Positions 1,117 to 64,000 of a DNA stretch of 64,000 nt are shown in pieces (positions within the stretch are counted from its first letter, which is position 1; each line of letters begins with the position of its first letter). The notes under the pieces are model-generated. The model was not told the origin of the DNA, made no database searches, and worked only from the letters and a program-made list of their open reading frames with translations. The stretch spans positions 65,140-129,139 of the forward strand of contig CAZMIM010000001.1 of NCBI GenBank assembly GCA_964566505.1, written 5' to 3'. The DNA is from an uncultured Candidatus Saccharibacteria bacterium (GTDB lineage Bacteria; Patescibacteriota; Minisyncoccia; Phycocordibacterales; PCTT01). A program made the translations under genes and the position numbers.

Positions 1117-1722
1117 TTATTTTTTCTTATTTTTAAAACGTTTTAGTAATTCAAAATCTTTTTCTAATACTGGTAGTTGCTTGCGATTATATATCGCAAC
1201 TGCCGGATGGTACAGAGGTAGAATATACATATCACCCCAGGACTGCTCTGTCTTAAAGAGTCTTCCTCGTCCTTGGCTAATCGGTAGCACTTCATCTGAA
1301 AGTCCAAACTGCTCCATAATATACTCCATTGAGTACCTACCAAGTGTAGCGATAACTTTTGGTTGGATGATTTCTATTTGCCGGAGAAGAAATGGGGTAT
1401 AGAGAGCTATTTCTTCTTTGCTTGGATCACGATTGTCTTGTGGGCGGTCTTTTACAATATTTGTAATATAAACATCTTCTCTATCGAGCTTTATATGCGC
1501 AAGTAGCCCATCAAGTACTTTCCCTGAAGCCCCACAAAATGGCCTTCCTGTTTGTGCTTCGTTTTTACCTGGAGCCTCACCGATAAAAACAATATCTGCA
1601 TCTGTATTTCCCTCACCTACTACTGGCACATAATCGTTTGAAACACGATATTCATAAAGTGGCGACTCTTTGAGAGCCACCAATTCATCTTTTATTTTCT
1701 CCATTTTCTTATCCTTCGTCAT
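1117..1722 (-). CDS. Uracil-DNA glycosylase, family 4
   Basis: GEAPGKNEAQTGRPFCGASGKVLD and HPAV motifs typical of family 4 UDG; stop abuts the pepF start. Confidence 0.85.
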   Translation of the reverse strand: MTKDKKMEKIKDELVALKESPLYEYRVSNDYVPVVGEGNTDADIVFIGEAPGKNEAQTGRPFCGASGKVLDGLLAHIKLDREDVYITNIVKDRPQDNRDPSKEEIALYTPFLLRQIEIIQPKVIATLGRYSMEYIMEQFGLSDEVLPISQGRGRLFKTEQSWGDMYILPLYHPAVAIYNRKQLPVLEKDFELLKRFKNKKK

Positions 1723-2380
1723 TTTCTTCCTCTACAAGTGGAACAAATACAAACCCTGGAAACTCTTCTGTATCAAACTCGTCGTTTTCTTTCTTTGTAT
1801 ATTTCCAAATTGAGTTATCGACTGGTGCCACAAGCACTCCTCCAACTTTTAACTGTCGTAGAAGCTCTTCTGGAAGTTCGCTTGTCGCAGATGCTGATAC
1901 CAAAATCCTATCGTATGGTGCATGCTCGGCGTTACCGACAATATCCTCTGCTTCTGTAAGCGTAACATTTGGATATCCTGAAAGTCTTTCTTTTGCTATA
2001 TCTAATAGCTCTTTCACCCGCTCTACACCTACCACATCGCCACTATCGCCCACCATCACAGAAAGAAGGGCTGCAGTAAATCCAGAACCAGCACCCACAT
2101 CAAGAACATGGTGACCCTCTTCTACACCCAAAAGCTCTAACATAAATGCCACTGTCGTTGGCTGAGAAATAGTTTGCCCATGACCAATAGGAATAGCGTA
2201 GTCTTCGTATGCTTCAAATTTATAATCCTCTGTTAGAAAGTCTTTTCTGTCTACTTCTGTGAATGCTTTTTCTACAAGCGGATTTTTAAACACACCACTG
2301 TTGTTTTTCAGATGTGCGAGTAAATCCTCTCGTGTAGAGAGTGGTGTATTTAGAATGTCATTTAAATCTTTGTTTTCCAT
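1709..2380 (-). CDS. pcm: Protein-L-isoaspartate O-methyltransferase
   Basis: GQTISQPTTVAFMLELL and VLDVGAGSGF SAM-binding motifs. Confidence 0.9.
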   Translation of the reverse strand: MENKDLNDILNTPLSTREDLLAHLKNNSGVFKNPLVEKAFTEVDRKDFLTEDYKFEAYEDYAIPIGHGQTISQPTTVAFMLELLGVEEGHHVLDVGAGSGFTAALLSVMVGDSGDVVGVERVKELLDIAKERLSGYPNVTLTEAEDIVGNAEHAPYDRILVSASATSELPEELLRQLKVGGVLVAPVDNSIWKYTKKENDEFDTEEFPGFVFVPLVEEENDEG

Positions 2381-3483: not shown

Positions 3484-3510
3484 GTTTGGGAAGGTCAGAC
3501 CTTCCCAAAC
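3484..3510. repeat. REP-like palindrome, family 1 (GTTTGGGA-N11-TCCCAAAC)
   Basis: gtttgggaaggtcagaccttcccaaac; perfect palindrome. Confidence 0.9.
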
Positions 3511-11354: not shown

Positions 11355-11381
11355 GTTTGGGAGAGTCAGACTCTCCCAAAC
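11355..11381. repeat. REP-like palindrome, family 1
   Basis: gtttgggagagtcagactctcccaaac, between convergent rnr and the LOG gene. Confidence 0.9.
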
Positions 11382-15353: not shown

Positions 15354-15380
15354 GTTTGGGGAAGTCAGACTTCCCCAAAC
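15354..15380. repeat. REP-like palindrome, family 1 (variant)
   Basis: gtttggggaagtcagacttccccaaac. Confidence 0.9.
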
Positions 15381-27864: not shown

Positions 27865-28305
27865 TTATTTAAATGGAAGAATGTCTTTAAACAAATCTGT
27901 ATTTCGTGAAAGTCGAGATACTCCACATGAATCAAGTCCTGAAGAATTTTCTAAAGTCGGGTCTGCACCGACAGACAGAAGAAATTTTACAACCTCTACT
28001 CTGCCTTCATAGATTGCAAACATTAAAGCTGTCCATCCATTATAGCCTTGAATATTTACATCGGCACCAAGAGACAATAACTCTTCTGCAACACTCTGGT
28101 GAATTGCCATGAGCCAAGCAATCCAACCAAAACGCTCAGCAAGCTCTATGTCCACATAGTAGTGATACATAAGTCCTTCATAAATTTCTTCAAGTGTTGC
28201 CTCTCTGTTTTTGAAATACTGTTTAAATTTTGATTGTCCACCCTTACAGGCAGAATAATCTTCCAAGAAATCGCCTGTTATTTTCATGATGGTTATAAGG
28301 TTCAA
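27865..28305 (-). CDS. Ankyrin-repeat protein
   Basis: GADVNIQGYNGWTALMFAIYEGRVEVVKFLLSVGADP ankyrin repeats. Confidence 0.7.
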   Translation of the reverse strand: MNLITIMKITGDFLEDYSACKGGQSKFKQYFKNREATLEEIYEGLMYHYYVDIELAERFGWIAWLMAIHQSVAEELLSLGADVNIQGYNGWTALMFAIYEGRVEVVKFLLSVGADPTLENSSGLDSCGVSRLSRNTDLFKDILPFK

Positions 28306-39563: not shown

Positions 39564-40556
39564 TCAAAGACGTGGGAACAAATCGAACTCGATATAGTCC
39601 GCCATTTCTTTAAACTCTGGTGTAAGGTGCACATCAGGAACCCATGCAATCCCCTTGTCGATGAGGTTTATTTCCTCAACAACTCGAGCGCCGGGAATGA
39701 GTGATCCATCTTCTGAATCACGCTCATGCCCCATAATGAGCAGTATGTCACACAGCCTAAGCATTGGTGACACGTCATGAGATATAACGAATATCGTATT
39801 ATGTGTATCGAGATTCGAAACCTCCCTGATGATTTCTACAGCCTTCGTGCGCGACAATGGATCAAGGTTGGCAAATGGTTCATCCATCACCATTACAAGA
39901 TCTTCACCGTGCGCAAGAATTTGCTGAAGAATTGCGGCTCTCTGTCTCTGTCCACCTGACAATTCTGCAGGATACATCTGAGTTGTGGAGCCGATTCCAA
40001 ATCGATCCATATAACTCAAAGCATCATTTTTTACAGCTGCACGAGCTCTTTTGTTGAATGATGCACGCTTAAACGGATTATATAATCCGGATACACGACT
40101 TCTCATTCGTTTTGCTCTTTGCATACCTGCGACAACTAAGTTGTCCAGAACTGTTCTGTGGTCAAACATCGGATATTGCTGTAAAACGAAACCTACTCGG
40201 CCTCGCTTGAGTGGAACATGGTCTGGACCATACGTTATGGAGCCAGAGTCATACCCAGTCAGACCAGCAACACGACGCATCATTTGAGTCTTACCTACAC
40301 CCGAAGGAGCAAGTATTCCTACAATCTGACCCTCTATCCGATTGTGACGTTCGATGTTTCTCACTTGGAAACTAGCGTCTCGCAAAACACTCTCGCCTCT
40401 ATAGCTGACATTGAGCCCTTCTACAGTGATGACAGGTTCTGCAAAGCGATATTTCCTCCCCTCATTTCCAAGGGGATATTGATTGACGTTCATAGTCATT
40501 ACCCCTTGAGCTTGAGAGTTGACCATCTGAAGCCTTTGGTTCGAATCTTTCCCCAT
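39564..40556 (-). CDS. ABC transporter ATP-binding protein (NitT/TauT family-like)
   Basis: Walker A GILAPSGVGKT, signature LSGGQRQR, Walker B LVMVMDEPFANLD. Confidence 0.85.
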   Translation of the reverse strand: MGKDSNQRLQMVNSQAQGVMTMNVNQYPLGNEGRKYRFAEPVITVEGLNVSYRGESVLRDASFQVRNIERHNRIEGQIVGILAPSGVGKTQMMRRVAGLTGYDSGSITYGPDHVPLKRGRVGFVLQQYPMFDHRTVLDNLVVAGMQRAKRMRSRVSGLYNPFKRASFNKRARAAVKNDALSYMDRFGIGSTTQMYPAELSGGQRQRAAILQQILAHGEDLVMVMDEPFANLDPLSRTKAVEIIREVSNLDTHNTIFVISHDVSPMLRLCDILLIMGHERDSEDGSLIPGARVVEEINLIDKGIAWVPDVHLTPEFKEMADYIEFDLFPRL

Positions 40557-41395
40557 AGATAATCAAAAAGAAGTCCTGCAAACAAAAGCAAAAACATGAT
40601 GGCAAACAAATTTGAAAGCTTCATGAACTTGTCTTCGATTGAGACAAGAACCCCTACTCCACCGCCACTGAGAACCAGTTTTTCTACTGATGTGAGCATT
40701 GCCCAACCAAATCCAAATACGGCACCAAAATTGGTAAGCGCAAGAGGAAATGTACCCAGAATAACGACTTCATAGAGAACTCTCCATTCACTCATTCCTA
40801 GAGTGTATGCGTGTTCATACAAATACTGAAACTGCTCGTCCACAACTCCATTCATTCCGTGTATGAAAAATACACTCAAAATGAAAGTCATGATAGAGAT
40901 TTTCAGTGACTCACTCCCCCCAAATTCAGTCATGAATATGAGGAGAAGAATTGCTATTGGTATGAAACGAAGAAGTGCGACAATCCTGCTTATAGGCCTG
41001 AATGCCGCAAGTCCTCTCAAGTACACAATGGAGAGCGAAAGGATGAAAGATATCACTGAAGATATGAACATGAGCTTGAAACTTTTTAAAAGATCCCATG
41101 CGAGACCTTTTTGAGTCCACAACTCAATTAGTCCATACCAAACGTCCAAAGGACGTGGGATTATTTGTGCCGCACCAAATACCCACCACAAACCAATCGC
41201 AAGAGCATACGAGAATGTAATACTCCATTCAACAGGTTTGGGTAAATCTTGGTTTGGAACAAACAACATCTTCAGAAGAGATATCACCCGATCAACAATC
41301 ACGGTTTTTTGCGGTTTTTTCATAACCACTCTCTCCTTTGAATAAGGGCCCGACTCGACTAATGTCTGAGTCGGGCCCTTGGTTAAAAAGAACAA
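40499..41395 (-). CDS. ABC transporter permease (BPD_transp_1; NitT/TauT-type)
   Basis: Six TM helices and an EAA-like loop; overlaps the ATPase gene start. Confidence 0.8.
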   Translation of the reverse strand: MFFLTKGPTQTLVESGPYSKERVVMKKPQKTVIVDRVISLLKMLFVPNQDLPKPVEWSITFSYALAIGLWWVFGAAQIIPRPLDVWYGLIELWTQKGLAWDLLKSFKLMFISSVISFILSLSIVYLRGLAAFRPISRIVALLRFIPIAILLLIFMTEFGGSESLKISIMTFILSVFFIHGMNGVVDEQFQYLYEHAYTLGMSEWRVLYEVVILGTFPLALTNFGAVFGFGWAMLTSVEKLVLSGGGVGVLVSIEDKFMKLSNLFAIMFLLLFAGLLFDYLWGKIRTKGFRWSTLKLKG

Positions 41396-41407
41396 ACGAC
41401 AGACAGG

Positions 41408-43345
41408 CTAGTTACCAATCCTGATTTCCACCCGACGATTCTTCGCCCGATTTTCAGCAGTGTTGTTATTGGCATTCGGATCAACCGGTTGCCTTTGGCC
41501 CATACCCGCAACACGAGTACGAGTAGTGTTGAAGTTCACTGGATCCTTGGTGTAGAACCACGCTTGGATAGTCTGCGCACGGCGCAGTGCCAAGCCGTCG
41601 TTAAATGCGGGATCACCAGTGTTGTCGGTATGTCCGACAAACTCAATCAAGTAACTCTGGTTCAAGCTCGTGAGCTGCTGATACAACCCATCGAGAACCG
41701 GAATCGATTCGGGCGCGAGCTCAGCGCTCCCAGACCGAAATTTGATTGAATCAAAATCACCACTCGCGCGAACGTTGGTAATGGCGGCATTCGGGTCATA
41801 ACTGCGCGACAACTTGACCGCAAGGTCAGGTCGTCGGTTTGCTACAGCTTCCAAATATCGTGTATTAACAGCTTCACTGTAAGGCACGTATTCTCCGTAT
41901 TCATTCGGATAGTTAAGTGCCAACACGTCACCATAACGTTCGTATGTGTTTTTATACAAACTCACGTTGTATCCAACACCAAAGAGCTCAAGCGTATGTG
42001 CAAGCGAGTGAACCTGTGATCCACCAACCGACACATTTTGACTCAATCGAGAATCAAAGATTTCTGTGCCTGTGTGCATTTCTGCCCAATAAGCACCGTC
42101 CTTCTGCTTGAGAACTTTTGCAGTAACTTCACTTGCCTCGAGCAAAGCTTCGCTGTTTGTTAGAACCTGATCGTTTGCTTCCGAAGAAGCTTCAATAATA
42201 GCTTCAATAACACCTGGGTTATCTCTCGCCCATCCACGATGCACAAGCAAAATGCTCGGCATCTGACCAGGATTGTCTCTTGTAGACCACATAGTCACCA
42301 CACCTCCACGCTGTTCAACAACGTTACGGTCTTCCGGTGTCCATACGGATACAGAGTCAACACAAACAGTCCGACGTTCTCCCGTCAACTCTGCTTCACC
42401 GGCAGAATTAACAGTTACAATCGGGCGCTCTTCGCAACGCTCCGAGACATAAGCCTTCGTAGCGTCAGAGTTTGAAGTTGTGGCATAGAAGTTGATACAA
42501 TCCGGATTGTATGTTTCAGGATCCGGGTTGATACAAACCCCATTGAGACTTGCCCAATCTACAACAATATTCTGATCATCGTCCATGATCACAGTTGCGG
42601 TGAGGAGGCCTCGCGCATTCCGTGAATCACGTAATACTTCAGGAGGAGCCATGAACTGATCTTCGCCATAGCTCCGTCCAAAAGAATGGACAATATCAAA
42701 ATTGTTTTCTTCAGGAAGTCTCTCAACTCCACCTGCGATTGCGGTTGTGTAGAAGGTTCCTCCTCCACCCATCACAACAATCGCAGCCGCTCCTTCGGTT
42801 GGATACATATCACCTTCGGCATAACGCTGAGCAAACAATACTGCGTTCTTGATCATCTGCGGTACATCATCAAGTACCTTGACTTCAAGACGAATATTGT
42901 CAGCACGGTTACGGCGAAGTGCCTGCTCCATCAAACTTCCACGAGCGGTAATAGCACCGCCATCACGTGATTCCTGGGCAGCACCATTGGCTGCAAAGAA
43001 GCCCTTCTGAGCCCCCCACGGAATCACCTCGATAGGCATTGTGTAATCTGCGCTCATGGGAGTAGTGCCTGTCCACAAAGAACGAGGTTCTACGGTATAA
43101 GGCACCGTGCTCACATCCTGGTTAATAACCTGGACTTCTTCATGAACACGGGAAGCCGCACGATTCTTCTCAGGCAACATCGACTTGGCAAAGCCAAGAA
43201 TGCTGTCACCAAAGAAAAAAGTGACGGCGACCAAAACCAGCAGTCCAAGGACTACTTTGGTTTTGGTAGGAATATCAACAGTGGTAGACATGTGAGTGTC
43301 CTCTTGTTTCGTGTGTGTTTCGTGTGTGCGACGTATATCAGTCAA
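41408..43345 (-). CDS. Membrane-anchored putative substrate-binding protein (~450 aa) fused to a C-terminal OmpA/MotB-like peptidoglycan-binding domain
   Basis: N-terminal TM segment; C-terminal ~110 aa FRSGSAELAPESIPVLDGL...IEFVGHTDNTGDPAFNDGLALRRAQTIQAWF...RRVEIRI is a canonical OmpA_C domain; sits directly upstream of the permease/ATPase. Confidence 0.55.
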   Translation of the reverse strand: MTDIRRTHETHTKQEDTHMSTTVDIPTKTKVVLGLLVLVAVTFFFGDSILGFAKSMLPEKNRAASRVHEEVQVINQDVSTVPYTVEPRSLWTGTTPMSADYTMPIEVIPWGAQKGFFAANGAAQESRDGGAITARGSLMEQALRRNRADNIRLEVKVLDDVPQMIKNAVLFAQRYAEGDMYPTEGAAAIVVMGGGGTFYTTAIAGGVERLPEENNFDIVHSFGRSYGEDQFMAPPEVLRDSRNARGLLTATVIMDDDQNIVVDWASLNGVCINPDPETYNPDCINFYATTSNSDATKAYVSERCEERPIVTVNSAGEAELTGERRTVCVDSVSVWTPEDRNVVEQRGGVVTMWSTRDNPGQMPSILLVHRGWARDNPGVIEAIIEASSEANDQVLTNSEALLEASEVTAKVLKQKDGAYWAEMHTGTEIFDSRLSQNVSVGGSQVHSLAHTLELFGVGYNVSLYKNTYERYGDVLALNYPNEYGEYVPYSEAVNTRYLEAVANRRPDLAVKLSRSYDPNAAITNVRASGDFDSIKFRSGSAELAPESIPVLDGLYQQLTSLNQSYLIEFVGHTDNTGDPAFNDGLALRRAQTIQAWFYTKDPVNFNTTRTRVAGMGQRQPVDPNANNNTAENRAKNRRVEIRIGN

Positions 43346-44432
43346 GGTGCTTTAGGTATTTACTACCCCCTTGACGATTACGCCCCTTGTTTTGGGTTTT
43401 CTGTTCATCAACATCATCAGGAAGAGGGATTTCAATCACTCCTCTAGAGGATTTGTCGATGGATATTGCTTTTTTCCCTTCTCCTCTTGCGATATCTGGA
43501 ATTTCCAGACCTGAATCCATCAGCATAGCAATCAAGGACGGGTCATCGTATGACATTGGGTTTTCAGCATTACCGAACCCTACGATAACCTTTTCTTGAA
43601 TACCAATGAGAGCTTCGATTTTTGCCGCATCAGCTTTAAATTGCTGAAACGCCATGTCCTCGGTAGCCATCAAAGACTGATTTTCACCCAGAGTATCAAG
43701 ATCGGGGTCTAATGATAATTCCCCAACGATGTCTTGAATTACGTCTTGTACCTCACCAGTGGTTTTTAAGCCACTAGCAGTTACCTTAAGTCCTTCAAGA
43801 GATACTTCTGTGTGAGTTTCGAGATGCTTGAGAAGGAGAAGCATATTTTCAATCTCCTCTTTTTTCTCCTCAAACCCACGAATAGATTCAACACGCGGCT
43901 GAAGTCGCCTTTTCAGGCTTTTGAGAACACTAGGATTAGCTTTTTCTTGCTTCTCCATTTCAGTCTTCAGTTCAAGGTATACCTCGTCCCGAACACTAAT
44001 GTCCTCCTTCAGCCTTGTGTTTACTTTTGTGAGAGCAACCTCCTCCAAACGACGAATACCTGAAGTGATTTTACGAAGTCGCTTTTCGTGCGCCTCAATA
44101 ATTTCATCAGGTGTTCTATTTGGTGTTGGTTTTTCTACAACTTCTTCCTCAGTAAGACCAGCGATTTTGCGAACAAACTGTAGATACAGCATCGCAAAAT
44201 GAGTCAGTGCATCTTGTGCACTGCCATGTTGTTCGCTTGTTCTCTGAAAGAAGTAGGTTGCAAGTGCAACAAGTAGGGTCAAAACTCCAGCGATCTGAAA
44301 CCCGGAAAGGCTCGCAACAAGAACCCAGAGTATCTGGATCATTACGAGCGGGAAAAGAATAGCAACACTGATCCCAACGTTTCGCTCCCGCTTATCACGA
44401 AAGACCCGCCGACGATCTTTTTTGCTACTCAT
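43338..44432 (-). CDS. Hypothetical membrane protein: basic N-terminus, two TM helices, long cytoplasmic coiled-coil domain
   Basis: ATG 44432 with GGAGG RBS, 1 nt after the stop of the upstream gene (translational coupling). Confidence 0.5.
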   Translation of the reverse strand: MSSKKDRRRVFRDKRERNVGISVAILFPLVMIQILWVLVASLSGFQIAGVLTLLVALATYFFQRTSEQHGSAQDALTHFAMLYLQFVRKIAGLTEEEVVEKPTPNRTPDEIIEAHEKRLRKITSGIRRLEEVALTKVNTRLKEDISVRDEVYLELKTEMEKQEKANPSVLKSLKRRLQPRVESIRGFEEKKEEIENMLLLLKHLETHTEVSLEGLKVTASGLKTTGEVQDVIQDIVGELSLDPDLDTLGENQSLMATEDMAFQQFKADAAKIEALIGIQEKVIVGFGNAENPMSYDDPSLIAMLMDSGLEIPDIARGEGKKAISIDKSSRGVIEIPLPDDVDEQKTQNKGRNRQGGSKYLKHLD

Positions 44433-44433
44433 A

Positions 44434-45270
44434 TTATTCCTCCGAATTTCCGAGGTTGAAGTCCGACTCAATCTCGTTTATACGAGCAGCCATGAGCTTT
44501 GCAGCTGCTTGGAATTGCATGCTCGTATTTACGGTATCAGCCTGGCGTAAAGAAAGTTCATCTTCGAGCTCAGGTAGCCCAGCGTCAATTTGTGACGCTT
44601 CAGCAACCAACTTTTCGGATGTTTTTTTCGCCTCATCAATCAAGCGCTTGGCTTCAGCTTCTGCCTCTGCCACAACCTCTTGCGCCCTGAGGCGCTTCGA
44701 TGACGCGTCTTCCTTTGCTCTTGCAATAGCTCGTTCCGCTTCTGCTTCACGTTTTGCAAGCGCTTTCAGTGCCTCATCACCAAAAAGAGACTTTTCTTGA
44801 TCCAAGCGCGCACGATGTGCGCCAAGATCTTCTGCAAGCTCCTTTTTGCCAATGTTTCGTTTTGCAAGCATCTTCATTACCAAGGCAACGAGTGCTTCTG
44901 GTCCAGCAGCAAGCTCTGCGAACTCCTTTTGCACATCAAGCAGTTGCTCGACAGGCGTTGGTGGAGTAGCGGGGTCAGATTCAAAAACAGTCTCCGCCAG
45001 ACTAACCAGCAAAGGATTGTTTTCGAGAACATTCCCCGCACCTTCAGCAAGCTCTGCATGTGTCTGTGTCAAAACTTCATCAGAAGAAGACGAGTCCACA
45101 CTCGGTGCTTTGTGCTGAAGATCTCGCAGTATCTGCTCAACCTCATCAGCTGCCGAAGAGGACTCTCCTCCAGCGGCATCTGGCTCCAGATTAGAACTTT
45201 CGTTCTCTCTGATAATAGTCGGTCCCCATCCTTCAGTGAGGAAAGAGACAAACTTGCTTTTTGGTGCCAT
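44434..45270 (-). CDS. Hypothetical acidic coiled-coil protein (278 aa) with EA-repeat region
   Basis: AEAERAIARAKEDA ... VVAEAEAEAKRLIDEAKK coiled-coil/EA repeats; GC about 55-60%. Confidence 0.5.
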   Translation of the reverse strand: MAPKSKFVSFLTEGWGPTIIRENESSNLEPDAAGGESSSAADEVEQILRDLQHKAPSVDSSSSDEVLTQTHAELAEGAGNVLENNPLLVSLAETVFESDPATPPTPVEQLLDVQKEFAELAAGPEALVALVMKMLAKRNIGKKELAEDLGAHRARLDQEKSLFGDEALKALAKREAEAERAIARAKEDASSKRLRAQEVVAEAEAEAKRLIDEAKKTSEKLVAEASQIDAGLPELEDELSLRQADTVNTSMQFQAAAKLMAARINEIESDFNLGNSEE

Positions 45271-45901: not shown

Positions 45902-46144
45902 GTGCTCCTTATGGAAATCATCTTCGGATTTGCAGTTCAGATACTCACCCTATGGCTTGCGATTTTTGCTATCTTTCTGTCGTTTCGCAAACATCAGTGG
46001 TTTCTGAATCAACACAAAAGATTCTTCAGATACCTCATGAGACGCTTTGGCACTTTCTTCAGAAAGCACCGAGCCATCATTCTAGCCTTCATTGCAGGAA
46101 TCATTTTTACCCTCTGGGTAATCCAAAACACCAACGTGCTTTAG
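45902..46144 (+). CDS. Small hypothetical membrane protein (80 aa, 2 TM)
   Basis: Promoter upstream; terminator hairpin 46123-46155 (aacaccaacgtgc...gtacgttggtgtt) immediately after. Confidence 0.45.
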   Translation: MLLMEIIFGFAVQILTLWLAIFAIFLSFRKHQWFLNQHKRFFRYLMRRFGTFFRKHRAIILAFIAGIIFTLWVIQNTNVL

Positions 46145-46164
46145 TACGTTGGTGTTTTCTCTTA

Positions 46165-46191
46165 GTTTGGGAGAGTCAGACTCTCCCAAAC
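46165..46191. repeat. REP-like palindrome, family 1
   Basis: gtttgggagagtcagactctcccaaac upstream of tonB. Confidence 0.9.
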
Positions 46192-46274
46192 TACTTCCCT
46201 TTTTAATATAAATAGGTGTATTCTATATATAGACGCACTCGCACAATCCATTCACTAAATACGTGAGGTATCTT

Positions 46275-46934
46275 ATGGCACTCAAGAAGTCGCCAAAAGC
46301 CGACCTTAAAAAACGTTATCCGCTTTTTCTGGAAATCGGCATAGTGTTCACTCTCGGTATCCTTATTGTTGCGTTTCGACTCGACATGAGTGCTGAGAAC
46401 GATTTCAACATCGACCTTCCTGATCAGGAAGTGGTTCAGATGGAAGAAATCACCCAAACAGAACAGGTACAGAAGCCACCGCCCCCGCCACGTCCGCCAG
46501 TACCTGTAGAGGTTCCCAATGACGAGGTGCTCGATGAAATCGAGATTGACCTGGGTGATATCTTTGACCTTGATGAAGAACTACCGCTTCCGCCCCCTCC
46601 TCCACCCGCAGTGGAAGAAGAGGAAGAAGAGCCGGAAATCTTTGTCATCGTCGAGCAAATGCCCGAACTGATTGGAGGTCTTGCAGAACTCCAAAAAAAG
46701 ATTACCTATCCAGAAATCGCCAAAAAAGCTGGCGTGGAAGGTCGGGTATATCTTCAGTTTGTGGTAGATGAACAAGGCAATGTCCAAGACCCTGTGGTTA
46801 CTCGTGGCATCGGTGCAGGATGTGATGAAGAAGCAATCAAGGCAATCCTGACTGCAAAGTTCAAACCGGGCATACAGAGAGGAAAGGCCGTTAAGGTCAA
46901 ATACAGCCTTCCTATCACCTTCAAGCTCAAGTAG
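46275..46934 (+). CDS. tonB: Energy transducer TonB (N-terminal TM anchor, Pro-rich spacer, TonB_C domain of the FCB/Bacteroidota type)
   Basis: IFVIVEQMPELIGGLAELQKKITYPEIAKKAGVEGRVYLQFVVDEQGNVQDPVVTRGIGAGCDEEAIKAILTAKFKPGIQRGKAVKVKYSLPITFKL; PPPPPRPPVPVEVP linker; AGGT RBS before ATG 46275. Confidence 0.85.
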   Translation: MALKKSPKADLKKRYPLFLEIGIVFTLGILIVAFRLDMSAENDFNIDLPDQEVVQMEEITQTEQVQKPPPPPRPPVPVEVPNDEVLDEIEIDLGDIFDLDEELPLPPPPPPAVEEEEEEPEIFVIVEQMPELIGGLAELQKKITYPEIAKKAGVEGRVYLQFVVDEQGNVQDPVVTRGIGAGCDEEAIKAILTAKFKPGIQRGKAVKVKYSLPITFKLK

Positions 46935-46959
46935 CAGGAGCTACTCCACTCTCACAATC

Positions 46960-46998
46960 AAACGGCTCAGGAGTTCAAAACCTGAGCCGTTTTTTGTT
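46960..46998 (+). terminator. Hairpin family 2; tonB terminator
   Basis: aaacggctcaggagttcaaaacctgagccgttttttgttttt. Confidence 0.8.
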
Positions 46999-47019
46999 TT
47001 TCTAATTTTAAACCCTAGA

Positions 47020-47076
47020 GTTTGGGAAGGTCTGACCTTCCCAAACTAAGAGTGTGAGAGTCAGACTCTCCCAACC
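47020..47076. repeat. REP-like palindrome, family 1: one full copy plus an adjacent half copy
   Basis: gtttgggaaggtctgaccttcccaaac, then gagagtcagactctcccaac. Confidence 0.85.
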
Positions 47077-47077
47077 T

Positions 47078-47482
47078 TTATTTGTTTCGGATTGAGGAGA
47101 TTGTAATGATTATCAAGCTGATGATTACATAAAGACCAAAAAGCCAATGAGTGAAGTGATATCTGTCTGGACCAAAGAATGCACCGCTCCATGAGTCTCC
47201 CCAACCAAGTATAAAAATATATACAAGAGGCACATGCCAAAGCGCAAATCGTGCCCAAGCTTTAAGAACAGCTAATTTTCGGGTGTATAAAATTAGTGAG
47301 ATAAATATTAAATATAAGGAAGAGTAAAATAAAACCCAACCAGGTTCATTCCACAATTTTAAACAATCTCTATTGTCTATACTGCAAATACCAAAAGAAA
47401 CTGAGTTGGATAATAAATATCCAATAATCAAAATTGCAAAAGAAAATATAAAAATATTTCTCCTTAAGGTTTGTACATTCAT
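47078..47482 (-). CDS. Hypothetical membrane protein (AT-rich gene)
   Basis: Multiple TM helices; GC ~30%. Confidence 0.4.
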   Translation of the reverse strand: MNVQTLRRNIFIFSFAILIIGYLLSNSVSFGICSIDNRDCLKLWNEPGWVLFYSSLYLIFISLILYTRKLAVLKAWARFALWHVPLVYIFILGWGDSWSGAFFGPDRYHFTHWLFGLYVIISLIIITISSIRNK

Positions 47483-61223: not shown

Positions 61224-62265
61224 AGAAATTGCTGATTGAGTATAGATCCTCTTCCCCGCTCTCTTCCTCTTTTTGCTCTTCTTTGGCTGGCAAATCACCG
61301 AGCGCATCAGATGCAGAGAGAACTGTTTTTTGCTCTGACACATAGTAGAGCTTTGGCTCATACATTCCTACTTTATCTGGTGTAGTGCCAGACTCTTCTA
61401 TAAATCTATCCATCATTGCTGATGTAGATTTTTTCTCGTCAGTACTTTTTACCAAATCCAAAATACTCTCAAGGTCTTGTGGTGAGAAGAAGTCGATAAC
61501 AATACGCCCACCAATATCTTTTTGTTCAATCTGTACTCGAGTACCAAGAGACTCTGCGAGCTTCTCCTCCATCTTTATTATAGTTGGATCAACTGTTCGC
61601 TCTTTCTTTCGCACCTTGTCATAGGCAATACGGCGCGCAATAGACTCTGCCTGGCGAACTGTTAGCTTTTTGTATACAAGCTCTTTAAAGAGTGTTTTTT
61701 GCTGTTCTGGACGGTCATCAAGCATGAGTAGTGGTCGTGCATGACCTTCTTTTATGCGTCCTTGGATAATGGCATCCAAAACATCTTCAGGCAAAATAAG
61801 AAGCCTGATAGAGTTTGAAACATACTCTCGTGAACGACCCACCTTTTCTCCGATTTGTGCATGTGTGAAGTTAAACTCTTCTGCAAGTTGTTTGAATGCT
61901 CGGGCGCGGTCTATTGGGTTTAGGTCTTCTCGTTGGAGGTTCTCGATAATAGCAAGCTCGAGCTTTTCACGAGCGCTTTGTTGTCCGCTTCTGATGATTA
62001 CCGGCACTTGAGAAAGGCCTGCGATTTGTGATGCTCGGTGTCGTCTCTCTCCTGCAATAAGCTCATATTCAACACTAATACCACCGTCTTCATTTACGAT
62101 TTCATTTCGTGTTACCACAAGAGGTTGAAGCACTCCATACTGACGAATGGAATCTGCCAAATCATTGAGTCGCGCCTCGTCAAACTCTTTTCGTGGCTGA
62201 TATGGGTTGGGAACTATCTTTGTTACTTCCACCCAAAAAATTGCATTTTCGTGAAAATTTGCCAT
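61216..62265 (-). CDS. parB: ParB/Spo0J-family partition protein (no adjacent parA)
   Basis: ParB box GERRHRAS and an HTH; 3' end overlaps rel by 8 nt. Confidence 0.85.
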   Translation of the reverse strand: MANFHENAIFWVEVTKIVPNPYQPRKEFDEARLNDLADSIRQYGVLQPLVVTRNEIVNEDGGISVEYELIAGERRHRASQIAGLSQVPVIIRSGQQSAREKLELAIIENLQREDLNPIDRARAFKQLAEEFNFTHAQIGEKVGRSREYVSNSIRLLILPEDVLDAIIQGRIKEGHARPLLMLDDRPEQQKTLFKELVYKKLTVRQAESIARRIAYDKVRKKERTVDPTIIKMEEKLAESLGTRVQIEQKDIGGRIVIDFFSPQDLESILDLVKSTDEKKSTSAMMDRFIEESGTTPDKVGMYEPKLYYVSEQKTVLSASDALGDLPAKEEQKEEESGEEDLYSISNFSI

Positions 62266-64000
62266 ATACACCTATACTTATAGTGATATTGTAGCACAGA
62301 TGAAAATTGGGAGTGTATGTGCATATTGCACAAAAGTGCGAGTTGCAGTACGCTTCTTGTATGTGCATGCCGCGGTGGCGGAATTGGTAGACGCGCACGA
62401 CTCAAAATCGTGTTCCTTACGGAGTGAGAGTTCGATTCTCTCCCGCGGCACAAGGAAGGAATGATTAGAGCAAAATCAGTGTTCTGTATCGAGCAGTCCT
62501 CAACATCCTGAGGTTCGACCCTGGAGTTTTTCTTTCGGGCTCTGGCCAGCATCTCAGTGAATGCCTGGATGGGTTTCGTGTTGTAAACACGAAGTGATTG
62601 GCCATCCAGAACCAGGTTCGACCCCCAAGCGGTCAACGATCCCCGCTTATCGCGAGGCGTCCCCTTAGCGATCACCTTGGATAGGTCGTGGGCCAGGTTT
62701 GCTAATTCTGCAGCTTTGTCGTACCACACCCCTTTCTTTTGATTTGAGCGTAGCGAGCGCTCCCGTTGGTCTAGCTCGGCTGTCATTTCGTTGAACTCAG
62801 TGTCATCAATCATCGCTTTTGAACGCATGATGACGACCTCCTTGCGCTGGCTTTTTAGATCAGCGATGGCATTAAGACGACAGTTGTCAACAGATCGGCT
62901 AGCCTCGATTTCTTCATCTCGTAGGTGAGTAAGATGCTTGAGGATCCAGTCTCTTAGGGCGGTAGAAATCGCCAGGTTCTGCCTGATATAGTCCAAGAGG
63001 AATGCCTCGACCTTTCTTTCCTCTATTGCAGGCGCCCTCACCCCAATCATCTTCCTTGCTCGGCTGCTACGATAGTACACGTAGTGCCTGAATGTTGGGC
63101 TCTTCATGTGACTTATCGCCAGGCTACACTTAGGACAGTGCTCTCTAGTAGCGTATGAAAACTTGTGCCTGCAGCCCGAACACACAACGTGGTCTTTGAA
63201 GTCGGCTACCACCCCGCAATCATATTGAGCGCAGCGAATAAACCCTGTGTATACGGCTCTGGGCCTTGCGTTGTGTCTCCTTCGACCGAGTCTACCCAGC
63301 ATCTTCTGAATGCGCCAGTATTCATCCTCAGAGATCGCTCGTGGAAGTGCTTGATCCATTTCATATCTCTTTCCCTCATAAAAGAAGAAGCCTGCGTAGT
63401 ACGTGTTGGCAAGAAGCTTGTAGAAGTTGGTCAGCGTGACTGGTTTGCCTCCAGATCTTTTTCTTATCGGCGTCCTTAGACCCAGCTCATTGCATGCATG
63501 CTCCCACACCTCTCGAACCGAAAACCTTCCACAAAGAATCCGACGAAACACCTCCTCGATGATGGGGAATCGCTCTTCGTCGACTTGCCACCTTTTTGCT
63601 CCTTTTTCCCCGGATTTGTCATTCTTATAGCCAATAGGCGCTAGTCCGTGTGGGATGCCAAGTGACGCTTTTCGCCGTTGTCCCCGCCTTACGTTCGAGG
63701 AAAGGTCGCGAATAAATTGGTTGGCCATCCCAAATTCAACAGCAAGAACGATGACGTTGGTCTCTGGGGTATAGCGAGATGTTGGCGTTCTGATTTCCTG
63801 GAGTACTCCTCGTTGAAGAAGGTCCATTATCCGACCGCCATCAATTGGGTTTCTGGCAAGCCGGTCTAGCTTCCAGCATATAATGGCGTTTGCATCCCCT
63901 CGTTCGACTCGTTCGAGCATTGCATTGAATGCCGGACGACCAACAGCTTTCGCAGATCGCTCCTCAGTGAATGGGGCGCCTGCGACAAAGAGTCCCCGCG
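62223..64000 (-). CDS. Large serine recombinase (integrase), partial: the N-terminal catalytic region runs past the window end. The C-terminal ~80 codons read through antisense tRNA-Leu and into parB, so the true stop is uncertain.
   Basis: The frame stays open to 64000 (…LFVAGAPFTEERSAKAVGRPAFNAMLERVERGDANAIICWKLDRLARN is a resolvase-domain motif); zinc ribbon CSGCRHKFSYATREHCPKCS and a coiled coil follow; GC ~55%. Confidence 0.75.
   Translation of the reverse strand, partial: RGLFVAGAPFTEERSAKAVGRPAFNAMLERVERGDANAIICWKLDRLARNPIDGGRIMDLLQRGVLQEIRTPTSRYTPETNVIVLAVEFGMANQFIRDLSSNVRRGQRRKASLGIPHGLAPIGYKNDKSGEKGAKRWQVDEERFPIIEEVFRRILCGRFSVREVWEHACNELGLRTPIRKRSGGKPVTLTNFYKLLANTYYAGFFFYEGKRYEMDQALPRAISEDEYWRIQKMLGRLGRRRHNARPRAVYTGFIRCAQYDCGVVADFKDHVVCSGCRHKFSYATREHCPKCSLAISHMKSPTFRHYVYYRSSRARKMIGVRAPAIEERKVEAFLLDYIRQNLAISTALRDWILKHLTHLRDEEIEASRSVDNCRLNAIADLKSQRKEVVIMRSKAMIDDTEFNEMTAELDQRERSLRSNQKKGVWYDKAAELANLAHDLSKVIAKGTPRDKRGSLTAWGSNLVLDGQSLRVYNTKPIQAFTEMLARARKKNSRVEPQDVEDCSIQNTDFALIIPSLCRGRESNSHSVRNTILSRARLPIPPPRHAHTRSVLQLALLCNMHIHSQFSSVLQYHYKYRCIWQIFTKMQFFGWK
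62370..62451 (+). tRNA. tRNA-Leu (anticodon CAA), type II with long variable arm
   Basis: Acceptor GCCGCGG/CCGCGGC, anticodon loop CUCAAAA, 13-nt variable arm, T-loop TTCGATT. Confidence 0.88.
62452..64000. mobile_element. Edge of an integrated element (prophage/ICE/genomic island) inserted at the 3' end of tRNA-Leu(CAA)
   Basis: Abrupt GC rise to ~55% exactly after the tRNA 3' end; serine integrase gene oriented with its 3' end toward the tRNA. Confidence 0.6.

Follow-up and report, generated by a model that had tools for sequence, protein, structure and literature searches.

The 64-kb stretch of DNA analysed here (the window) is an ordinary chromosomal segment of a Patescibacteria/Paceibacteria bacterium from the candidate phyla radiation (CPR); at 46275..46934 on its forward strand it encodes a TonB protein of 219 amino acids, with repetitive extragenic palindromes (REPs) in the intergenic regions on either side. 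The mechanically called open reading frame (ORF) spans 46263-46934 (223 aa), and translation probably begins with the ATG at 46275, which a Shine-Dalgarno sequence, GAGG (46265-46268), precedes by 6 nt. Pfam TonB_C matched residues 146-222 of the 223-aa ORF (E 3.2e-21, 76 bits against a cut-off of 24.6, 78 of the 79 profile positions), the NCBIfam model tonB_Cterm (TIGR01352) gave E 4.7e-14 and 52.5 bits against a cut-off of 27.1, and the PDB TonB chains 6i97, 2k9k and 6fip aligned with the product over residues 143-217. The C-terminal domain (PF03544/TIGR01352) contains the YP...G.EG.V motif of the family, and the single N-terminal membrane anchor and proline-rich spacer of TonB proteins can be read from the translation. 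The layout comprises a basic, cytoplasmic tail (residues 1-14), one hydrophobic anchor (15-36), a spacer (37-66), a linker of two proline runs with an acidic stretch between them (67-121) and the TonB_C domain (approximately 122-219); the anchor RYPLFLEIGIVFTLGILIVAFRL (14-36) and, within the linker, KPPPPPRPPVPVEVP (67-81) and PLPPPPPPA (104-112) are legible in the translation. The protein thus shares its three-part architecture and the TonB_C fold signature with the canonical Ton system of E. coli and Pseudomonas (6i97, 6fip, 2k9k), from which it differs in that its C-terminal domain is only about 25-30% identical and that its anchor, as read from the sequence, lacks the SHLS-type His. By sequence this TonB is a standard member of its family, and what is unusual is its host and its long retention there.

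The gene is intact and has its own expression signals as well as the full TonB architecture, in agreement with the first-pass annotation, which had placed a solitary TonB gene within 46165-47076. An intrinsic terminator, AAACGGCTCAGG...CCTGAGCCGTTTTTT, lies downstream at 46960..46997 on the forward strand, read from the sequence as a stem-loop (46960-46992) followed by a T-run, and the fold of 46935-47000, made up of this stem-loop and a weak upstream hairpin, has a free energy of -26 kcal/mol (z -6.4). As the 80-aa ORF upstream ends with its own terminator hairpin (46125-46158), we conclude that tonB is monocistronic. A search of the gene's surroundings for a strict sigma-70 promoter consensus found none. 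The 5' region of tonB (46194..46274, forward strand) holds, besides the Shine-Dalgarno sequence, a 25-nt element, AGGTGTATTCTATATATAGACGCAC (46214-46238), which also occurs upstream of a tonB copy on another CPR-like contig (L040) and is identical in the two despite saturated synonymous sites; approximately 75 nt upstream of tonB are conserved with L040 and not with the upstream regions of Rhodothermales copies. This element is probably a promoter or operator. The element (L040:255-279) contains a perfect palindrome, TCTATATATAGA. It occurs once in the window and otherwise only in L040, and in none of the other loci, and was therefore rejected as a shared regulatory motif; a metagenome scan for a conserved 21-nt upstream element gave no match. 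The small ORFs on either side of tonB (80 aa and 134 aa) were likewise rejected as conserved partners, having no homologue in any related locus.

The first-pass annotation had described this TonB as belonging to the type found in the Fibrobacterota-Chlorobiota-Bacteroidota (FCB) group, and the relationship proved closer than was stated there, with full-length identities of 74-81% to TonB proteins of Rhodothermales/Bacteroidota. The best database matches were 74-80% identical over 100% of the length, and those with names were either 'energy transducer TonB [Rhodothermales bacterium]' or from Bacteroidetes metagenome-assembled genomes (MAGs); among the best 120 matches (62-80% identical) every named one was from Rhodothermales or Bacteroidetes. 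To the database protein P0002 and the locus L008 identity reached 81% over 219 aa, whereas for Balneolales it did not exceed 52% and for Bacteroidia it was 31-38%. When a set with a single genome for each GTDB species, not including the window's genome, was scanned, 35 loci were recovered, none from Patescibacteria and 33 from Bacteroidota, Rhodothermota or Ignavibacteriota, and identity across them fell from 60-80% in Rhodothermales/Bacteroidetes MAGs to approximately 50% in Balneolales and 31-38% in Bacteroidia and Cytophagia. All named or located relatives outside the CPR loci belong to the FCB group. In neighbour-joining (NJ) trees the window TonB fell deep within the Rhodothermales clade, and all CPR copies were nested in that clade in 179 of 200 replicates when four copies were included and in 95 of 200 with five. 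The full-length, collinear alignment and this placement assign the protein to an orthologous group of solitary, Rhodothermales-type TonBs, and it has the profile of a xenologue, its nearest relatives being in another phylum and the wider recipient group being reported to lack it (PMC6744442).

The resemblance to the TonBs of Rhodothermales/Rhodothermota MAGs (P0002, P0009, P0010 and, from Bacteroidetes bacterium casp15, L008) extends from end to end (74-81% identity, 217-220 aa) and includes the anchor motif ADLKKRYPLF.E.G..TL..LIVAFRL, the linker PPPPPRPPVPVEVPNDE and the C-terminal domain EQ.PELIGGL...YPEIAKKAGVEGRV, as well as the monocistronic arrangement without adjacent exbBD. In the closest of these relatives the gene order is YjeF - VanZ - tonB - 249-aa ORF, and exbBD are absent from the annotated flanks. 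Because the Rhodothermales copies have no adjacent exbBD, the donor gene would already have been solitary, which implies that tonB moved alone. In contrast to these relatives, which are from diderms of 53-71% GC (the contigs of the closest ones fall in this range with one exception at 48.6%), the window's host is a 41% GC Patescibacteria; moreover, the window's 5' region is AT-rich and lacks the Bacteroidota-type -7 box, the protein carries 13 lineage-specific substitutions common to the window and L040, and the terminal branches of the CPR TonBs are 1.5-5 times longer than those of the Rhodothermales ones.

That the host belongs to the Patescibacteria follows from the UvrB matches and from the CPR-style housekeeping genes of the neighbourhood. 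Among the 120 UvrB matches listed (70-77% identity), those with names are labelled Candidatus Paceibacterota, Parcubacteria or 'Patescibacteria group', with the exception of one 'bacterium', and the best named ones, at 71-74%, are all Paceibacterota, Parcubacteria or Patescibacteria. The window encodes uvrA/B/C, tgt, ddl, dnaE, dnaX, thrS, serS, topA, relA, parB, rnc, a nusB-NUDIX fusion, trmD and rpsS16, many of them short in the manner of CPR genes. In the NCBI taxonomy the UvrB relatives are placed in Minisyncoccota (kingdom Bacillati) and Rhodothermales in the FCB group of Pseudomonadati. CPR bacteria are reported to be devoid of TonB-ExbB-ExbD and of an outer membrane (PMC6744442, PMC7137472), and PilQ is likewise stated to be missing (PMC6744442, PMC7137472).

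Copies of this tonB were present in five independent assemblies (from NCBI, JGI, ENA and Logan), in contexts of 37-42% GC, four of which are clearly CPR, and the gene is monocistronic in every carrier. L046, a 64.8-kb JGI contig of 40.5% GC whose UvrB is 77% identical to that of the window, has uvrB-tgt-FKBP followed, after about 4 kb, by tonB; L047 (ENA, 39.9% GC, UvrB 76%) has topA-relA-parB-murA-miaA-tonB-FKBP-tgt-uvrB-uvrA-uvrC-ddl; and L043/44/45 (ENA and JGI, 37% GC, UvrB off the contig), whose ParB, RelA, TopA and Tgt share 66-71% identity with those of the window, have tgt-FKBP-84aa-tonB-miaA-murA-murB-parB-relA-topA. The window shares this frame, but additional genes have been inserted to either side of tonB, and the immediate flanks of tonB differ among the CPR relatives. 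The first-pass annotation had suspected a mobile or acquired cassette and had considered that conserved synteny in relatives would contradict this; such synteny is largely what we found, as L046, L047 and L043-45 carry tonB at the same locus. At this locus tonB is missing in relatives with UvrB identities of 73-75% (L048, L057 and the contig of P0133). The fifth copy, in L040 (Logan, 42% GC), shares 13 derived residues with that of the window, and the two paired in 200 of 200 bootstraps.

The history of the gene in these hosts is long. Both against L040 and against the Rhodothermales copies, the proportion of synonymous differences (pS) was 0.79-0.85 and that of nonsynonymous differences (pN) 0.13-0.18, a pN/pS of about 0.17, values we give in place of dN/dS because dS is saturated; this synonymous saturation means that the transfer is old. 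TonB identity among the CPR copies is 57-77% (63-72% if only the four at the shared locus are compared), comparable to that of other proteins of the same genomes (Tgt 68-81%, RelA 66-78%, ParB 71-78%). In 138 Rhodothermales-type sequences, 107 alignment columns show conservation of 95% or more; of these the CPR copies have changed 6, 6, 12, 14 and 14, so that 87-94% of what is invariant in Rhodothermales has been kept. Anchor, spacer, linker and C-terminal domain show a similar rise in divergence, of about 1.4-1.7-fold, and only the 14-residue cytoplasmic tail exceeds this; at the nine conserved positions of the anchor the CPR copies show 0-3 changes. Judging from these substitution patterns, tonB is an old gene of this CPR lineage that is constrained over its whole length by purifying selection.

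A GC content of approximately 55-60%, as given in the first-pass annotation, is an overestimate: the gene has 48.6% (47% at third codon positions, GC3), the whole span 46.7%, and only the linker rich in Pro codons (46400-46700) attains 52-58%. The gene nevertheless lies about 7 points above the window mean of 41.3%, and the GC3 of the neighbouring genes is 25-41%. All CPR copies are elevated in the same way (45-50% against 37-41%), and since the elevation recurs in every one of them, we take it to reflect the Pro/Glu/Gly-rich composition of the protein more than recency of arrival.

The REP upstream of tonB (46163..46193, TAGTTTGGGAGAGTCAGACTCTCCCAAACTA) is an exact member of its family, begins just past the terminator hairpin of the 80-aa ORF and forms an RNA hairpin of -21.6 kcal/mol (z -6.2). 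Downstream, a copy with the stem variant GGGAAGG/CCTTCCC (47019..47047) is followed in tandem by an incomplete one (47053..47073), which borders directly on the stop codon of the 134-aa gene (47078-47482, reverse strand) that converges on tonB. Other copies are found at 3484..3510 (intergenic, a stem variant), 11355..11381 (between convergent genes), 15354..15380 (with the compensatory stem variant GGGGAAG/CTTCCCC) and 50281..50319 (with an extended 19-bp stem). The sequence GTTTGGGAGAGTCAGACTCTCCCAAAC occurs exactly at 11355, 46165 and 50287 and has no copy in shuffled sequence, and the consensus of the family is GTTTGGG-RRR-GTCWGAC-YYY-CCCAAAC. Every one of the seven copies falls between genes, in most cases shortly past a 3' end; their hairpins have -19 to -29 kcal/mol, and their stems covary (GGGAGAG/CTCTCCC, GGGAAGG/CCTTCCC, GGGGAAG/CTTCCCC). 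These near-identical intergenic palindromes with compensatory stem changes are a true REP family, spread within this genome. The first-pass annotation had located tonB exactly between two such palindromes, and one family does indeed flank it on both sides, although the coding sequence is separated from the palindromes by 82 nt on the upstream and 85 nt on the downstream side. Three of the seven copies adjoin tonB within 0.9 kb, which is above chance at roughly P ~0.01 by a post hoc estimate, and synteny with the relatives is broken at the two REP-bearing intergenic regions beside tonB.

The family was absent from the L046, L047, L048 and L040 loci and was not found in the Rhodothermales tonB loci; in L043 a single palindrome has the GTCTGAC core in common but differs in its stems. 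A metagenome scan for the REP recovered five contigs, none of them from the window's organism. In one of these loci, L050 (54% GC), a REP at 1173-1199 abuts the 3' end of a 230-aa Y1_Tnp gene (1204-1896, reverse strand; HUH motif, PF01797, 1.2e-10), and the opposite end of the gene has another REP-like copy, read from its GRSDLP translation, an arrangement that by sequence is of the type of REP-associated tyrosine transposases (RAYTs). Another, L049:9224-9324, carries three tandem REP copies. The family resembles the REP/RAYT systems (REPINs) of Proteobacteria in its palindrome of about 27 nt in intergenic 3' regions, its stem covariation, its tandem doublets and, in L050, its position flanking a Y1_Tnp (IS200-like) gene, and differs from them in that here it is found in a CPR genome, with no RAYT gene inside the 64-kb window. 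No RAYT system is known to move cargo genes, and nothing here suggests that a RAYT moved tonB. In our view the REPs arrived later at points of rearrangement, or brought the rearrangements about, and do not mark the ends of a cassette.

Taken together, the observations make it probable that this is a functional tonB, acquired long ago by the ancestor of a small Paceibacteria subclade from a Rhodothermales-like (FCB) bacterium. The gene, already solitary and monocistronic in its donors, would have been transferred alone and would have gained its AT-rich 5' region in the CPR lineage; since then it would have been inherited at one neighbourhood, between FKBP-tgt-uvrBAC and miaA/murA-parB-relA-topA, evolving some 1.5 times faster than in Rhodothermales while remaining under purifying selection throughout. 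The host-specific REP family, RAYT-associated elsewhere, would have colonised intergenic hairpin sites later and would define no cassette. Several observations weigh against this account. The copy in L040 follows serS and lies away from the shared locus; the CPR TonBs never formed one clade in NJ trees (0 of 200), with no convincing synapomorphy across CPR; each of them is as close or closer to Rhodothermales (69-81%) than to the other CPR copies (57-77%); the distribution of an 11-12-aa indel agrees with neither gene tree nor host tree; and the GC3 of tonB is still above the 25-41% of its host. On the functional side, the window and approximately 170 kb of related CPR sequence showed no exbB, no exbD and no TonB-dependent receptor, and the published surveys put TonB-ExbB-ExbD and the outer membrane among the features missing in CPR (PMC6744442, PMC7137472).

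The indel in question is a homologous two-cysteine insertion, MPCLLDNxGxCDxxx, which replaces 'ELIGG' at window residues ~128-140 of the TonB alignment (P0046, P0248, P0245-P0247); this Cys-loop is present in L040, L043 and some Rhodothermales-like copies (P0245-7) and absent from the window, L046 and L047. Two Rhodothermales-like contigs (L041:252-1658 and L042:129-2122) carry two to three tandem TonB_C genes (140, 172 and 230 aa), the last of which is the Cys-loop variant. The NJ trees were built from a 219-column alignment with 200 replicates, which is too short and crude a basis to decide between single and repeated entry, so that, given the non-monophyly and the Cys-loop conflict, a single acquisition rests on synteny and not on the tree. 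Non-monophyly may result from slow donors combined with a fast, star-like divergence in CPR, or from repeated exchange of alleles, and it is the synteny that favours a single entry.

Repeated exchange, in which Rhodothermales tonB alleles or patches of them would have been received more than once, possibly from Rhodothermales-like bacteria serving as hosts or by recombination between CPR at the shared locus, would explain why these TonBs resemble Rhodothermales as much as or more than one another and never form a clade, why the TonBs of the sister hosts L043 and L047 are not themselves sisters (7 of 200), and why the Cys-loop, contrary to both trees, occurs in part of the CPR and part of the Rhodothermales-like copies. 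The same pattern would nevertheless be expected of slow donors and rapid star-like divergence on 219 columns, synonymous saturation leaves no room for a recent exchange, and several insertions at one locus are improbable without flanking homology; we therefore regard repeated transfer as unlikely, yet as the most serious of the competing histories. A recent or mobile cassette bounded by the REPs, as the first-pass annotation had envisaged, is far less probable. The acquired part of that proposal stands, the FCB type being foreign to a Patescibacteria host, and REPs within approximately 85 nt on both sides, the clustering of the REP copies, the raised GC and the variable flanks of tonB would all fit mobility as well. 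Against it, the gene occupies the same locus in three other CPR assemblies, its synonymous sites are saturated against every relative, the tonB-bearing relatives lack this REP family (L040 has the same 5' region and no REP), and GC is equally raised in all CPR copies. Nor did we find the presence/absence polymorphism, nearby recombinase or mobile replicons expected of such a cassette: the window ORF scans revealed no integrase, transposase or recombinase within ~15 kb of tonB, a search of phage contigs yielded no copy, and the plasmid matches were all below 60% identity and all from Bacteroidota, without any close plasmid copy. Least probable of all is an artefact of chimeric assembly or bin contamination, by which a Rhodothermales fragment would have been joined at the repeats: flanking repeats are classic points of misassembly and the protein is 81% identical to a Rhodothermales TonB, but five independent assemblies carry tonB in CPR-type contexts, no Rhodothermales sequence exceeds that protein identity while synonymous sites are saturated, and neither the AT-rich 5' region nor the REPs are those of Rhodothermales loci.

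As to what the protein does, the architecture suggests that residues 15-36 would anchor TonB in the cytoplasmic membrane, that the rigid Pro/acidic linker would span the wall, and that the C-terminal domain would capture a beta-strand (the 'TonB box') of a partner. Since constraint persists in the anchor, the linker and the C-terminal domain, we tentatively favour a TonB that remains in use together with an ExbB/ExbD-type motor and a barrel-type partner, both encoded outside the window, over a motor-independent role. In the latter case, which is less likely though still to be reckoned with, TonB would act without ExbB/ExbD as a tether or adhesin that is anchored in the membrane and spans the wall, with a C-terminal domain that binds peptidoglycan, a surface-layer protein, the barrel protein of this lineage or an envelope component of a diderm host. 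The missing exbB/exbD in the window and the related CPR loci, the reports of CPR devoid of a Ton system and outer membrane (PMC6744442, PMC7137472), the monocistronic tonB in every carrier and the short cytoplasmic tail being the most diverged part would all suit a tether; however, a mere anchor would not need its conserved positions to be so largely kept, the whole protein follows the constraints of Rhodothermales, and the sequence inspected amounts to about 10% of any one genome. That tonB is instead a decaying passenger with no function in the CPR cell is very improbable: no known partners are present and CPR genomes are otherwise streamlined, yet the ORFs are intact in five genomes after synonymous saturation, pN/pS is low, most invariant positions are kept, and a streamlined genome would have lost the gene.

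The partners themselves were sought by a Pfam scan of every window ORF of at least 120 aa and of plausible shorter ORFs in the gaps, and across the 64 kb, which are part of a contig of at least 283 kb, no MotA_ExbB, ExbD, Plug or TonB_dep_Rec domain was detected, in line with the first-pass annotation, which had seen no ExbB, ExbD or receptor here. In this, and in belonging to a group described as having no outer membrane (PMC6744442), the window departs from the canonical Ton system. No Bam, Lpt or lipopolysaccharide genes were seen in the available sequence, and no genes for outer-membrane biogenesis lie in the window. The OmpA match at 41408-43345 is the C-terminal OmpA/MotB-type peptidoglycan-binding domain of a membrane-anchored 645-aa protein encoded beside ABC-transporter genes. 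Such domains also occur in monoderms, and for this reason the match is not diagnostic of an outer membrane. More suggestive is a 244-aa protein (52648-53382, reverse strand) with a signal peptide and a C-terminal Phe (...GFGLSNLF), 23 of 40 homologues of which match Pfam Gcw_chp. Alignment-based AlphaFold returned an almost wholly beta-stranded model (pLDDT 92.5, pTM 0.86; single-sequence pLDDT 34), and the best Foldseek matches of this model in the PDB were all outer-membrane barrels (NanC, KdgM, OmpG, porins and autotransporter domains; probability 1.00), so that the protein does model as an outer-membrane-type beta-barrel. It is too small for a TonB-dependent transporter, and its first strand belongs to the barrel. 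The gene is syntenic in the CPR relative L054 (9680-10315), between dus and dnaX, and is also found in L055:440-1075, and a homologue of 32% identity is labelled Candidatus Paceibacterota. A family of outer-membrane-type barrels within CPR, as these models predict, would be unexpected. The diderm envelope that the first-pass annotation took tonB, this protein and the OmpA domain to indicate is, on these 64 kb, a possible feature of the host.

Some neighbouring features were recorded in passing. The block 39564-45270, of elevated GC (43-48% in 1-kb windows, 40-45 kb), encodes an ABC ATPase, a permease and the 645-aa OmpA/MotB-type protein, together with two proteins that match no family, one of 377 aa and one of 278 aa with a faint DivIVA-like match; as FKBP and tonB are nearly adjacent in L043 and L047, the block is an insertion relative to them. 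On the other side, adjoining tonB, a 903-aa protein (47509-50220, reverse strand) combines an N-terminal signal-like hydrophobic segment with an LCAT/PGAP1-like lipase and a lamin-tail domain; its gene is very low in GC (35.5%, GC3 25%), and from its domains it could be a membrane-attacking enzyme of a symbiont. Further away, a large serine recombinase ORF (62223-63920, reverse strand), of 50% GC and at 62 kb the first recombinase met on leaving tonB, has a Resolvase domain that matches from profile position 55 and looks N-terminally truncated; it overlaps tRNA-Leu (62369-62451) and the start of parB, in a part of the window with 48-51% GC, and the region may be the remnant of an integrated element. 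An ankyrin-repeat protein (27865-28305, reverse strand; Pfam Ank 2e-12) is also encoded in this CPR genome.

Surveys take the absence of TonB-ExbB-ExbD as genomic support for CPR cells without an outer membrane (PMC6744442), and a Paceibacteria subclade with a full-length, strongly constrained TonB and a barrel is a concrete, testable exception. It is conceivable, if doubtful at present, that this subclade has long kept a diderm-type envelope kit, consisting of the Rhodothermales-derived TonB and outer-membrane-type barrels, which would serve either in an unrecognised outer-membrane-like layer or at the envelope of a host. If so, one option would be a CPR outer-membrane-like layer with a working Ton-type system; in the other, the symbiont would place the kit on or in the envelope of a host that is a diderm and possibly Rhodothermales-like, where a host-mimicking TonB could engage the host's TonB boxes. 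A clue to the identity of the host may likewise lie in the donor lineage. Two outcomes are conceivable, an outer-membrane-like layer and energised transport of the Ton type in some CPR, or a TonB that can be selected for a role without its canonical partners, and each would bear on the biology of the CPR cell envelope and on the interaction between symbiont and host.

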